64,000 bases of DNA, from assembly GCA_951406725.2 (NCBI GenBank), contig OX597839.1, forward strand, positions 3,162,001 to 3,226,000. The letters run 5' to 3'. The notes beneath the pieces were generated by a model that did no database searches, was not told the origin of the DNA, and was given only the letters and a program-made list of their open reading frames with translations. Source of the stretch: Octopus vulgaris. Its lineage: Eukaryota. Each line of letters opens with the position of its first letter. Position 1 is the stretch's first letter. This document shows positions 4,897 through 63,477 of the stretch, piece by piece. Made by a program: the position numbers and the translations under genes.

Positions 4897-4940
4897 GACC
4901 ACTGATGCGGTCACAGGAGTGTGACGAAAGAACTCTGGCC
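4897..4940 (+). ncRNA. Minimal type-I hammerhead-like motif (A9C core variant)
   Basis: cca CTGATGC g GTCAC-aggagt-GTGAC GAA AGAACT C tgg. Stem I cca/tgg, 5-bp stem II. Core differs from CUGANGA at position 9. Confidence 0.5.
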
Positions 4941-5152
4941 GAAATAAGATTAAGATTAATGTAAAAAATAAATAACAATGAAGCAAAATAACACCAAATA
5001 TATAGTGCGTGTGTTTTTATTGGCTAAACTGGCAAAATGACCATTCCGAAATATAACAATATCTGTTTCAACACACGACTTCACATAAAAAATCTTGCAC
5101 AACAAATATTTAAACGTATATATATATATATATATATATATATATATATATA

Positions 5153-5545
5153 TTGCATCATTGCTCATGTGAACCCCTAGGTCACGCAATGACTCTGACT
5201 CTGGGACTCTAGTGCATTCCGATTTTAGCCTCGTGTTGGGCCGATAAAGGAGTGTCTGAAATTTCATAGCATTGAACTGCATGTAAGTTTTGTTTGTCCA
5301 TTTGTGTATTTCATTCAGGTCTCTCTGCAGTTTTACGATGTCCTTCGGGTTCCTAACTGCCTGTGATACTTTTGTGTCGTCAGCATAACTGGTCAGATTG
5401 GCTGGCTGTACCGCGGAAGGCCTCTCTGAATAGTAGTGGCCCCAGTACCTGTAGGACTCCGCTGAGAATTGGTGTCTCTTCAAAGTGAGCACCATTGGCT
5501 GCAACTGTTTGATCCCTTCAGAAAGTCATGCAACCACTCTCCCTG
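5153..5545 (-). mobile_element. CR1/L2-group LINE reverse transcriptase fragment
   Basis: YADDTK...LQRDL..IHKW...MQFNAMKFQ...SLRDLGVHMSND are the RT motif 5 and thumb motifs. Confidence 0.85.
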
Positions 5546-5559
5546 TTTCCTAGTAATAC

Positions 5560-5702
5560 CTATTTCTTTACTACCCACAAGGGGCTAAAACATAGAGAGG
5601 ACAAACAAGGACAGACGGATTAAGTCGATTATATCGACCCCAGTGCATAACTGGTACTTAATTTATCGACTCCGAAAGGATGAAAGGCAAAGTCGGCCTC
5701 GG
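5560..5702 (-). mobile_element. SINE family A, 3' part
   Basis: Matches the family core and tail. Confidence 0.85.
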
Positions 5703-6358
5703 TGTTTCAGGATTAAAATTTCACTTGGCTCTTAGAGCGTTGTATGGGTTTCATATGAAAATTACATTACTAAAATTGACGTACTCAGTCAGTTTCACAA
5801 CGATAGGAAATGACGGATGTTCAAAAGTTTGATTAATTAATATATGATATAGATTTGAAAGTTCAGTAGGTTTCAATGTAATTAACTTACTGCTTGGAAA
5901 ACGATTAAACTCTCAAATTTCTATCGTGTTCTATTGTTATGAAATTTATCCAACGTTTGAACTCTGGTTATTTCCTATTGCTGCGAAACTTATGGAACAA
6001 TTGACTTTATAAGCATGCTTTATAGCAATAGAATTTTCTCCTGTGCATGCAGCTTCTGTTAAAGTTTTATCTGTTTTATTTACCAATGATAAATAAAACA
6101 CGACCTGCCAAAAAGTCGTTGAAACTGGTATGCGATTTTGACATTTTAAAAAAAAACGAAACAAGAGGCAATACAATTCGTTTTGCTATCTATTTGTATT
6201 TTCATCCACCCAATCAAACTTATCATCCTACTTTCATAGAAGTAAGTATGCATATATATATATATAGGGAGAGTTTACGAAAAAAAAAACAAAAGACGAA
6301 GACAGGTGGTGTACAAAACAAACAGATGTATTAGTATAACGCTCAGGAATAGAAAAGT

Positions 6359-6394
6359 CTTTTACGTTTCGAGCCTACGCTCTTCTACAGAAAG
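6359..6394 (-). ncRNA. Minimal hammerhead motif (CUGUAGA core), copy 1 of a tandem pair
   Basis: Reverse complement: cttt CTGTAGA a GAGC-gtag-GCTC GAA ACGT A aaag. Stem III is the palindrome ACGT. Confidence 0.65.
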
Positions 6395-6614
6395 GGACAC
6401 AGAAAAAACAAGGAGAGAATATATATATATGTATGTATGTATTTGCATATATACATATATATATATATATATATATATATATATATATATATATATATAT
6501 ATATATATATATATATATATAGGGAGAGTTAACGAAAAAAAAACAAAAGACGAAGACAGGTGGTGTACAAAACAAACAGATGTATTAGTATAACGCTCAG
6601 GAATAGAAAAAGTA

Positions 6615-6649
6615 TTTTACGTTTCGAGCCGACGATCTTCTACAGAAAG
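6615..6649 (-). ncRNA. Minimal hammerhead motif, copy 2 of the tandem pair (stem II mutated)
   Basis: Same motif as 6359-6394 but with GATC in place of GAGC in stem II. Confidence 0.5.
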
Positions 6650-61126: not shown

Positions 61127-61640
61127 GAGCAAAATGCTTCACGGCATTTCATCTGCCGCTACGTTCTGAGTTCAAATTCCGCCGAGGTCGACTTTGCCTT
61201 TCATCCTTTCGGGGTCGATTAAATAAGTACTAGTTACGCACTGGTGTCGATATAATCGACTTAATCCGTTTGTCTATCCTTGGAGCAAAATGCTTCACGG
61301 CATTTCATCTGCAGCTACGTTCTGAGTTCAAATTCCGCCGAGGTCGACTTTGCCTTTCATCCTTTCGGGGTCGATTAAATAAGTACTAGTTACGCACTGG
61401 TGTCGATATAATCGACTTAATCCGTTTGTCTATCCTTGGAGCAAAATGCTTCACGGCATTTCATCTGCCGCTACGTTCTGATTTCAAATTCCGCCGAGGT
61501 TGACTTTGCTTTTCATCCTTTCGGGGTCGATTAAATAAGTACTAGTTACGCACTGGTGTCGATGTAATCGACTTAATCCGTTTGTCTGTCCTTGTTTGTC
61601 TCCTCTGTGTTTAGCCCCTTGTGGGTAGTAAAGAAATAGG
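61127..61640 (+). repeat. SINE A with a triplicated 156-bp internal unit
   Basis: GAGCAAAATGCTTCACGG at 61127, 61283 and 61439. More SINE A copies follow to about 62210. Confidence 0.9.
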
Positions 61641-62254
61641 CGTTTCATTCGTCTTTATGTTCTGTGTTCAAATTTCGCTGAGGTCGACTTTGCCTTTCAT
61701 CCTTTTGTGGTCGATAAAATAAGTACCACTTGAGAAGTAGGGTCGAACTTCCTGATCTGCGACCAAAAATTGTGAAACCATTATTTAGTTAGTTTAAGGT
61801 GGGAAGATGACAGAATCGTTAGCATGCTGGACAGAAGGCTTAGTGGCGTTTCGTCGATCTCTACGTACTGAATTCAAAAGCTGTCCAGATTATCTGGACA
61901 GCTTTCATCCTGTCGCGTCGTTAAAATAAGTACCAGTTGAAAAATGAGATGGATGCAATCGACTGTCACTCCAGGCGGCGAACTGACAGAAACGTTTGTA
62001 CACCGGACGAAATGCTAAGCGGTATTTCGTTTGTCTTTACGTTCTGAGTTCAAATTAAGTACCAGTCGATAAATTAAGTACCAGTTGTGTATTGGGGTCG
62101 ATCTAATCGACTGACCCCCTCTCGAAAAATTTAGGGCCTTGTGCCTACAGTAGAAAATAATCGACTGTCACTCCACACTCTCAAAATTGCTGACACTGAC
62201 AAAATTTGAAAGCATTATTAGCTAGATCAGTGGTTCTCAAATGGATTCCATATT

Positions 62255-62512
62255 TGTTGGATGAGAATGGCATGAAAAAGCTTCCAAAGCCAAGCCAGTC
62301 ACGAGATAGGATCCCTATTGAACACCTCTAGGGCGTAATGGACAGGATACTTTGTAAAAAGAACAAGACAGTATCTGCAAAAGCCAGATCTTTTGAGATT
62401 GCTGCATGAAACTTTGCAAGAAATTCCGCAAGAGATTATTCATCCGATCAGTAACATACCTAATAGGATCTTTGCATTGAAAAACGCAAAGGTCATGTCT
62501 ACTAAATATTAA
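62255..62512 (+). mobile_element. Tc1 transposase C-terminal fragment
   Basis: PSQSRDRIPIEHL*G (degenerate SPDLNPIEHLW) ... IPNRIFALKNAKVMSTKY*. Confidence 0.85.
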
Positions 62513-62521
62513 ATAATCACA

Positions 62522-62751
62522 AAGCGGCGAGCTGGCAGAAACGTTAGCACGCCGGGCGAAATGCGTAGCCGTATTTCGTCTGCCGTTACGTTCTGAGTTC
62601 AAATTCCGCTGAGGTCGACTTTGCCTTCATCATTTCGGGGTCGATAAATTAAGTACCAGTTACGCACAGGGATCGATGTAATCGACTTAATCCGTGTGTC
62701 TGTCCTTGTTTGTCCCCTCTGTGTTTAGCCCCTTGTGGGTAGTAAAGAAAA
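62522..62751 (+). mobile_element. SINE family A with 18-bp TSD
   Basis: AAATATTAAATA(A/T)TCACA at 62504-62521 and 62752-62769. Confidence 0.9.
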
Positions 62752-62974
62752 AAATATTAAATATTCACATTATAACAATGAATAAATAATTTGAATGTGT
62801 AATTCCAGATTTAAATAAATTTTCATATCATGTATATATATATATATATATATATATATATATATATATCATTGGTGTTTTTCCCCCTCTGCTATCAAAA
62901 TTAAGTTATATTTGCCTCACTCTAGATTTGAGAGCACTCTAATGGATTTCTGCTTTGGAGTTTTTTTTTAAAAT

Positions 62975-63260
62975 GATCGTAAGGTCTTGCGTTTAATTCC
63001 CAGCGAGTCGTTGTGTCCTTGAGCAAGACACTTTATTTCACTTTGCTCCAGTCCACTCAGCTGGCAAAGATGAGTTGTACCTGTAGTTCAAAGAGCCGGC
63101 CTTGTCACTCTTTGTGTCACGCTGAATCTCCCTGAGAACTACGTTAAGGGTACACGGATCTGTGGAGTCCTCAGCCACTTGCACGTTAATTTCACGAGCA
63201 AGCTGTTCCGTTGACCGGATCAGCTGAGACCCTCGTCGTCGTAACCGACCGAATACTCCA
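62975..63260 (+). mobile_element. SINE sharing the family C 3' region
   Basis: The 3' part matches the reverse complement of 760-920. Confidence 0.8.
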
Positions 63261-63442
63261 TATATCTATCTATCTATATATCTATATATATATCTATCTA
63301 TATATATATATATATATATATATATATATATATATATATATATAGTTAATCCAAACAAGAAAGCACAAAAAAACACAACAACACGAGGACGTGGAACAAA
63401 TATAGTATTATTGGACGCTCAGGAAAGAAGGAAAGAAGGAGG

Positions 63443-63477
63443 GTTTAACGTTTCGAGCGGAGCTCTTCGTCGGAAAC
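63443..63477 (-). ncRNA. Minimal hammerhead motif (CCGACGA, U4C variant)
   Basis: Reverse complement: gttt CCGACGA a GAGC-tcc-GCTC GAA ACGT T aaac. Confidence 0.65.

Follow-up and report, generated by a model that had tools for sequence, protein, structure and literature searches.

A stretch of 64,000 nt of the Octopus vulgaris genome (assembly GCA_951406725.2, contig OX597839.1, positions 3,162,001 to 3,226,000 of the forward strand; in the following "the window", the coordinates of which are used throughout) raises the question which elements carry its many hammerhead-like motifs, and how these elements multiplied with catalytic cores that deviate from the consensus. A first-pass annotation had listed 13 minimal motifs of type-I topology and had attributed them to about ten dissimilar, non-autonomous elements of a Penelope or retrozyme-like system. 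We found that the motifs are hammerheads in the 3′ ends (pseudo-long terminal repeats, pLTRs) of many families of Penelope-like elements (PLEs). The unexpected part, which the first-pass annotation did not contain, is the inheritance of core substitutions in multiplying families. We see even odds that at least three independent Penelope lineages, and possibly a fourth, replaced an "invariant" base and then multiplied to copy numbers in the thousands or tens of thousands, with the rest of the hammerhead kept under selection. If this holds, PLE hammerheads would be selected for damped activity or for their fold, not for fast cutting. To account for the altered cores, the comparison of copies favors a damped but still selected ribozyme, the predicted cleavage of which would be slowed by A6U, U4C and A9C without stopping retrotransposition, and we give this explanation a probability of about 0.6.

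Hammerhead motifs in the window

A hammerhead-like string is present at all 13 sites. The sites were evaluated with a descriptor that accepted at most one core mismatch, counted U3-A8 as canonical, and required pairing in stems I and II as well as self-complementarity of stem III, with a cut-off score of at least 4 in the window. Nine sites passed (4902+, 6390−, 12520+, 19845−, 20315+, 41437−, 47398+, 59113+ and 63473−) and have the type-I topology, that is, paired stems I and II, A15.1-U16.1 and H17. The proposed comparison with shuffled sequence was clearly in favor of the motifs: 60 local dinucleotide shuffles contained 0.73 sites on average and three at most, and the reversed or complemented window contained none. 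An earlier, stricter descriptor had recovered only three sites in the window. The density of motifs was about 2.4-fold that of random stretches (8 versus 3.3 expected, p=0.02).

Four sites failed, and the first three of them belong to families that do bear hammerheads. In the copy at 6615, stem II is damaged. At 21731 the reason is stem II, which is short and closed by a G.A pair in all 12 family loci; stem I has 6 bp and the palindrome 8–9 nt. At 43385 the cleavage triplet is damaged in the window copy, and relatives have the full ATCGGTCCGAT palindrome. The fourth site (55621–55653, plus strand) is a decayed look-alike that resembles family B (see below) and has lost G5 and G12; its family is not established, and a blast against the two loci tested gave no match. 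The list of 13 thus stands with this exception. Two further motifs were missing from it, one at 24376–24417 (plus strand) in the 3′ untranslated region of a GIY-YIG remnant and one at 59066–59101, the inverted partner of a listed motif.

The invariant core, CUGANGA or its U3-A8 version together with GAAA, is present at 19765, 20309, 21731, 43385, 47394, 41405 and 59110. It is altered in family A (6359, 6615 and 12515), which has U6, in family B, which has C4, and in family 4897, which has C9. The palindromes of stem III had been named correctly. They are 4–11 nt long, and their computed duplex energies, from which dimer formation is only predicted, range from +2.2 (AAUU) to −13.9 kcal/mol.

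The suggested scan with Rfam models did not recover the motifs. No hammerhead was found in the top 150 of 645 matches listed, which were dominated by microsatellite matches to microRNA models, and the hammerhead models had no match at gathering score in 6 loci. Canonical-core searches and Rfam models miss a large share of such motifs in such genomes.

Abundance in the genome and support for the structure

The genome comprises 2.8 Gb in 227 contigs. In 52 arbitrary 10-kb stretches (520 kb), 27 motifs with a score of at least 6 were found, versus 2.5 in shuffles and none in reversed sequence. This leads to an estimate of about one motif per 20 kb and 1.3–1.5 × 10^5 in total (95% range about 0.85–2.1 × 10^5). 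An exact pattern of canonical core and palindrome-like stem III had 29,472 genome matches, versus 2,289 for the reversed pattern. About half of the first 100 matches listed for the canonical pattern belong to one family (stem II GGCTG/CAGCC, palindrome ACGU) that is absent from the window. The motifs are diverse: in all loci examined, 130 distinct motifs formed 46 clusters, although a few of these clusters probably arose by chance.

When sites were chosen by core and stem II alone, 44 were found in the 520 kb of random DNA; 23 of them had the palindrome and 14 also stem I, whereas the shuffles contained 14.2, 3.3 and 0.2, respectively. Because palindrome and stem I exceed the shuffles at sites that were not chosen for them, the hammerhead structure was not produced by the search criteria. 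Covariation, another proposed check, was also observed: in one family, of which 11 copies were compared, both partners changed in 5 of 14 base pairs, although the shuffle control overstates this result because these copies represent only about three subfamilies. Chance matches in AT-rich, microsatellite-rich DNA are therefore of practically negligible probability. The loose descriptor still yields 2.5 shuffle matches per 520 kb, but 27 versus 2.5 in random loci, 29,472 versus 2,289 for the reversed pattern, and the conservation and covariation in families refute this explanation.

Penelope-like elements carry the motifs

PLEs encode a reverse transcriptase (RT) and a GIY-YIG nuclease, and their bias for microsatellites is possibly mediated by a cysteine linker; their transcripts begin in the upstream pLTR, and their hammerheads need a second copy and cut slowly (PMC4209133, PMC8557442, PMC6765202; here and below, statements on published work refer to the accessible portions of the cited sources). 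Five families were tied to PLEs that code for RT and endonuclease, namely 4897, A, 19765, 41405 and the family of the remnant at 23.6 kb, and the attribution to Penelope pLTRs with a palindromic stem III is borne out by this link. An RT followed by a GIY-YIG domain with CCHH in one open reading frame (ORF) was found in these five families only.

The annotated GIY-YIG remnant is part of a broken PLE (23563–24501, plus strand) with a CX4CxxC linker, the GIY-YIG domain and a 3′ untranslated region that ends at (TA)26. It carries a hammerhead itself, the additional motif at 24376–24417, which has a U3-A8 core and has lost G12 in the window copy. Its protein is 92% identical to that of a young family with many open frames of 753 aa (Pfam RVT_1 E 1e-7, GIY-YIG E 0.0016), in which a U3-A8 hammerhead lies about 100 nt before the (TA)n end. 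At one locus (G000:C1:94342410-94343241), seven alternating inverted copies of the hammerhead of this family are arranged within 830 bp.

Family A is the tail of a second PLE. A frameshifted RT-endonuclease frame was found in locus L146 (RVT_1 E 7.6e-6), and in 15 of 30 loci chosen by the endonuclease the motif lies 0.5–1.2 kb downstream of it. In the window, one family A 3′ end (6266–6418, minus strand) contains the hammerhead at 6359–6394 with the core CUGUAGA (A6U) and the stem III ACGU. A second copy (6544–6678, minus strand; hammerhead 6614–6649) follows on the same strand across (TA)33 at a distance of 255 nt from the first, and a family B-like 3′ fragment without hammerhead is found at 6824–6896 (minus strand). 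The third copy (12469–12644, plus strand; hammerhead 12515–12552, A6U) ends at (TA)n.

Family 4897 is a third PLE with intact elements, in which a hammerhead is followed by an ORF of 1312 aa and, 4,588 nt later, by a hammerhead again; inverted and head-to-tail copies occur. The 1312-aa frame had no Pfam hit, and DKS, YVDD, linker and GIY-YIG/CCHH motifs were recognized in it, some of the names being taken from PMC8557442. The window contains a pLTR copy (4792–5116, plus strand) that includes a short inverted piece (4792–4832), ends at (TA)18 and encodes the first approximately 27 codons of the parent ORF in its 3′ part; copies are 98–100% identical. Its hammerhead (4896–4940, plus strand) has the core CUGAUGC, and A9C is fixed in the family, including the intact elements.

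In the 19765 family, an endonuclease frame was found about 1.05 kb upstream on the same strand (locus L338). The window copy is a PLE 3′ end (19734–20029, minus strand), and its hammerhead (19765–19848) has a canonical core, a long stem II that starts with a U.U at its base, and the palindrome ACGAUCGU. In the 41405 family, RT and endonuclease lie about 0.7 kb upstream on the same strand (loci L205 and L212), and the 3′ end in the window (41349–41566, minus strand) carries a hammerhead (41405–41440) with a U3-A8 core and an ACCGGU-type palindrome.

The endonuclease is C-terminal in the three parents that were read, which are only distantly alike, two of them with about 26–28% identity. A CX2-5CxxC linker precedes it in the 753-aa and the 1312-aa frames, and the first cysteine is altered in the sole family A copy read. 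An N-terminal endonuclease without canonical hammerhead, as in Naiad PLEs, was not found in these parents. Partial tandems that form pLTRs and inverted 5′-truncated copies are present. In domain layout the elements resemble the C-terminal endonuclease PLEs Neptune and Nematis (PMC8557442), which share the RT, the CX2-5CxxC linker and the GIY-YIG with CCHH, as well as tandem and inverted insertions, the microsatellite bias and alternative 3′ tails. A protein homology search with the PLE protein gave no clade names among the relatives. Some homologs (P0043, P0048, P0062, P0067, P0084 and P0096; 43–46% identity) are annotated as bacterial, on short contigs of mollusc gill symbionts; they are probably host DNA in symbiont assemblies.

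Insertion ends and the retrozyme model

In 9 of 10 families the first (TA)4 is located at a family-specific distance downstream of the motif, for example at 131–137 nt in all 24 copies of family B, and the background frequency of a (TA)4 within 150 nt is 15%. The 3′ ends are fixed and abut (TA)n, and the 5′ ends are ragged; the ends are not permuted. The annotated association with (TA)n tracts is thus real, but the tract lies at the fixed 3′ end and not simply around the elements. In copies that had not been selected on upstream similarity, the 5′ end was at most 90 nt upstream of the core in 34 of 41 cases for family A and in 23 of 23 for family B, a test that is limited for family B by the lack of long references. 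No family A copy had its 5′ end between 85 and 148 nt. Because the 5′ ends cluster so closely upstream of the core, they suggest that short templates consisting only of a pLTR exist besides ordinary truncation. In families 4897, A and B, many of the ends that lie about 55–85 nt upstream of the core adjoin AAAATGGC-, GCCATG- or AAAATGTG-like words. These words may resemble a YY1 site or an initiator.

The proposed non-autonomous nature therefore fits the short copies, but not the five families that are the tails of coding PLEs. Likewise, there are many families, but not all elements are dissimilar: three of the 13 motifs belong to family A, which has 3′ sequence in common with family B.

Non-autonomous retrozymes would replicate as tandem repeats via self-cleaved circular RNAs, and they are defined by head-to-tail repeats of 150–450 bp that each carry a hammerhead. 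The short copies with clustered 5′ ends and the same-strand pair 6359/6615 would fit, and an origin of retrozymes from pLTRs has been proposed (Li et al. 2026, 10.64898/2026.07.22.740005, a preprint). Like animal retrozymes without long terminal repeats (non-LTR retrozymes; PMC7229834 and the same preprint), the octopus elements include short non-coding hammerhead repeats related to pLTRs, and mobilization of the short copies in trans is probable. However, of 121 copies from seven families 105 were solo, 15 had an inverted second piece and 2 a same-strand fragment without hammerhead; a second hammerhead on the same strand within 1.5 kb was not found in any of them. The imperfect pair 6359/6615 in the window is the sole exception that was seen. 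Fixed, non-permuted 3′ ends and the five coding families also argue against retrozymes and, unlike non-LTR retrozymes, the sampled copies form no tandem arrays and their hammerheads are minimal rather than canonical. For the sampled copies the retrozyme reading is largely refuted, and we regard it as very improbable.

Instead, RT and GIY-YIG nuclease would paste the elements into (TA)n tracts by target-primed reverse transcription, which would start at the 3′ (TA)n end and usually stop within 200–300 nt. Short copies would derive in part from transcripts of about 200 nt with a start within solo pLTRs and in part from 5′ truncation. For stem III, two RNAs would pair, or else both pLTRs of a single transcript. 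Cutting is predicted to be slow and restricted to dimers. The templates would be mostly uncut or re-joined, because the copies run across the cleavage site: only 2 of 48 family A copies are truncated at or in the motif, and the rest cross the scissile bond. Four public contig sets that cover family A showed no step-up of depth at the scissile bond and contained no recurring joint at the cleavage site; assembled contigs cannot show ends, strand or level, and the missing joint therefore speaks neither for nor against expression or circular RNAs.

Core substitutions inherited by subfamilies

The largest superfamily examined, A plus B, was searched with a pattern that leaves seven core bases free. 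It had 31,377 matches, of which 3,877 were canonical. Among the first 100 listed, 63 had the core CUGUNGA, 17 CCGANGA and 3 CUGCUGA; 11 were canonical and 6 had other cores. Of 46 family A copies chosen by their 3′ flank alone (48 hits, two of which were dropped as truncated), 42 had U6. In the tree of family A the canonical copies lie within a clade that is supported and has longer branches; 17 of 18 rows in the youngest clade have U6.

Family 4897 had 3,347 matches, and position 9 was C in 96, A in 3 and T in 1 of the first 100 listed; all intact elements read have C9. The three A9 copies are 85–92% identical to the young reference, versus 94–97% for 12 of 17 C9 copies; the remaining five C9 copies are lower in identity, over longer gapped alignments. 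The lower identity, together with diagnostic letters shared by two of the three, makes the A9 copies look like an older subfamily. Older subfamilies thus carry canonical cores.

A possible fourth case is the youngest subfamily of the 753-aa family. Among the first 100 listed of 903 matches, 70 are one U short at the cleavage site, as are all motifs read from copies that share at least 98% identity with the young reference. This case is not counted as firm because the motif can also be read as having an extra A in GAAA and a 6-nt palindrome, and an insertion in GAAA has been reported as tolerated (PMC3088659). Several further hammerhead families also include single copies with C4 (L015, L076, L099, L196, L262, L263, L348 and L356).

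The genome therefore offers natural pairs in which an older canonical and a younger altered subfamily belong to the same element; one of these pairs includes intact young copies. Because both members of such pairs coexist in the genome, cleavage rate can be set against proliferation.

Constraint on the altered motifs

In the 46 flank-chosen family A copies, all four letters occur at N7 and two at H17. A second letter in at least five rows was found in none of the other 22 non-CpG motif columns versus 29 of 82 flank columns (p 0.0003), and with a threshold of at least three rows in 6 of 22 versus 41 of 82 (p 0.047). Contigs from four public runs with four organism labels gave the same picture: among the rows listed, motif variation of at least 8% was confined to N7 and H17, with the exceptions of one private site and one CpG site. 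G5, G8, G12-A14 and the stems are fixed across subfamilies with diverged flanks. Because variation is confined to N7 and H17, the family A motif continued to evolve in the manner of a hammerhead after the loss of A6.

Most simply, the ribozyme would be weak but still selected, and its reduced activity would spare the template RNA. Changes at positions 4 and 6 are known to lower activity strongly, though not always to zero (PMC3088659, PMC7151607, PMC9901934), and for this reason a damped ribozyme is favored. No activity data for A6U or A9C were found in the literature, in which A9C was not searched by name.

The same data could be explained by variant motifs that are catalytically dead and persist as dispensable passengers, either because time was too short for their loss or because of a role in binding, dimerization or as a promoter. 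In a saturation mutagenesis of the CUGA turn, the C3-G8 swap was the exception, and every other single or double change left low activity (PMC9901934); core changes were tolerated in three lineages; in vitro cleavage was observed for only one of nine Xenopus dimers (Li 2026 preprint); and Naiad PLEs thrive without canonical hammerheads, which, as the authors of that study suggest, may merely parasitize PLEs (PMC8557442). A dead passenger would, however, not be expected to vary at N7 and H17, which are free in an active hammerhead, and to keep G5, G8, G12-A14 and the stems fixed. We consider this explanation rather unlikely.

At the other extreme, the variants could be fully active in their own setting, with U6, C4 and C9 rescued by the dimer, another metal ion or a PLE protein, and would then be new natural core variants. 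The precedents are A6C, which nearly abolishes cleavage with Mg2+ but retains it with Mn2+ (PMC7151607), and U4C, which supports the infectivity of a viroid (PMC3088659), and the continued constraint on the motif would be expected. However, the alignments show no second-site change that would compensate for U6, C4 or C9, and the minimal hammerheads of PLEs are slow even when canonical (PMC4209133). Full activity thus appears improbable, less so than retrozymes but more so than a dead passenger. Selection against the ribozyme was also considered and was set aside as unproven, as canonical cores persist in families at 96–98% identity.

Several points weigh against a damped but selected ribozyme in PLE tails. 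No ORF was found in families B, 20309, 21731, 43385, 47394 and 59110 (11–24 loci each). A single origin of U6 is not supported by the flank tree, which has 88 columns and six changes, at least three of them forced. Seemingly canonical cores in family B can result from decay of the CpG (CCG to CTG). Since canonical or U3-A8 cores are retained in several families that are fairly young, weakening of the core is tolerated, not required. The copies in the conservation test are not independent of each other phylogenetically, and low-complexity runs occur in the flank. Loop II is conserved as well; the same pattern could therefore arise from a role in the binding of a protein or a promoter.

Relation to known hammerheads

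Novelty had been overrated in the first-pass annotation, which had regarded the families as probably unannotated. Minimal hammerheads that stem in large numbers from truncated PLEs have already been published (PMC4209133), as have U3-A8 cores, pairs in inverted orientation and the (TA)n bias. The octopus motifs agree with that set in type-I topology, palindromic stem III and the covariant U3-A8, in the predominance of single copies from truncated PLEs, in opposite-strand pairs 100–700 bp apart, in the many unrelated families per genome, and in twin motifs around an ORF for RT and endonuclease. They differ from it in three respects. The representative motifs given in the accessible part of that study are all CUGANGA or UUGANAA, whereas thousands of copies have U6, C4 or C9 here; many octopus families have palindromes of 8–11 nt, long stem II inserts and closing pairs other than G-C; and the number is about 10^5 instead of 2,000–9,000 per genome, with different descriptors. 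For the role of PLE hammerheads, cutting of tandem transcripts and formation of circles (PMC4209133) or mere parasitism (PMC8557442) have been proposed.

Natural core variants that alter the same positions 6 and 4 are A6C in phage Bcep176 and U4C in a viroid, and a natural U10.1-U11.1 variant corresponds to the U.U closing pair at 19765 and 47394 (PMC3088659, PMC7151607). These natural variants are single rare cases in the sources, whereas here whole retrotransposon subfamilies inherit the change. A9C was not encountered in the literature covered. The literature search found neither A6U nor PLE hammerheads from cephalopods, and no prior report of the density, the long palindromes or the inherited core substitutions; the PLE hammerhead variants of Lunse et al. 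(2016/17), which lay outside the literature covered, may add core variants.

Further motif copies and other repeats in the window

Family B is represented by a copy of about 200 nt between (TA)n tracts (63345–63545, minus strand), the hammerhead of which (63443–63477) has the core CCGACGA (U4C). The motif at 20309–20371 is part of a repeat 3′ end (20204–20407, plus strand; no ORF in 11 loci) and has a canonical core, a 6-bp stem I and a 9-nt palindrome. An inverted 3′ piece (21490–21636) and a copy (21695–21837) make up the plus-strand feature 21490–21837, with the hammerhead at 21731–21788, the G.A closing pair and AUCCGGAU. Canonical cores are also found in the minus-strand repeat end at 43235–43475 (hammerhead 43379–43438, with the damaged triplet) and in the plus-strand repeat end at 47209–47738 (hammerhead 47394–47493), which has the U.U followed by a 13-bp stem II and an 8-nt palindrome. 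A fold-back pair of 3′ ends (58976–59332, plus strand) contains the hammerhead at 59110–59146 (U3-A8, AAUU) and the inverted partner mentioned above; a 3′ fragment of the same family without its hammerhead lies at 54236–54366.

Other repeats were found by masked self-blast, as a plain repeat search was dominated by microsatellites. An interspersed repeat of about 230 bp, SINE-like by look only, has about ten copies with 85–95% identity, one of them locally tandem (153–389, 10902–11164, 33192–33375, 45373–45603, 59552–59790, 61100–61640 and 62521–62750). A second repeat family is located at 14375–14716, 27923–28209, 35953–36400 and 40695–41080. Remnants resembling the RT of long interspersed nuclear elements are present on the minus strand at 4956–5525 and 56696–57235, with a weak RVT_1 match for the first (E 0.014) and none for the second. 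A coding-looking stretch and its inverted duplicate (1341–1998 and 2190–2562; 78–89% identity) gave only a weak match to Sec20 (E 0.019). Fold-backs were seen at 24643–24778, 47845–48354, 54302–54451, 37447–37676, 31343–31622 and 36229–36650, among them a perfect palindrome of 136 bp, an inverted repeat of 253 nt with 98% identity and several weaker ones; they are probably inverted ends of mobile elements.

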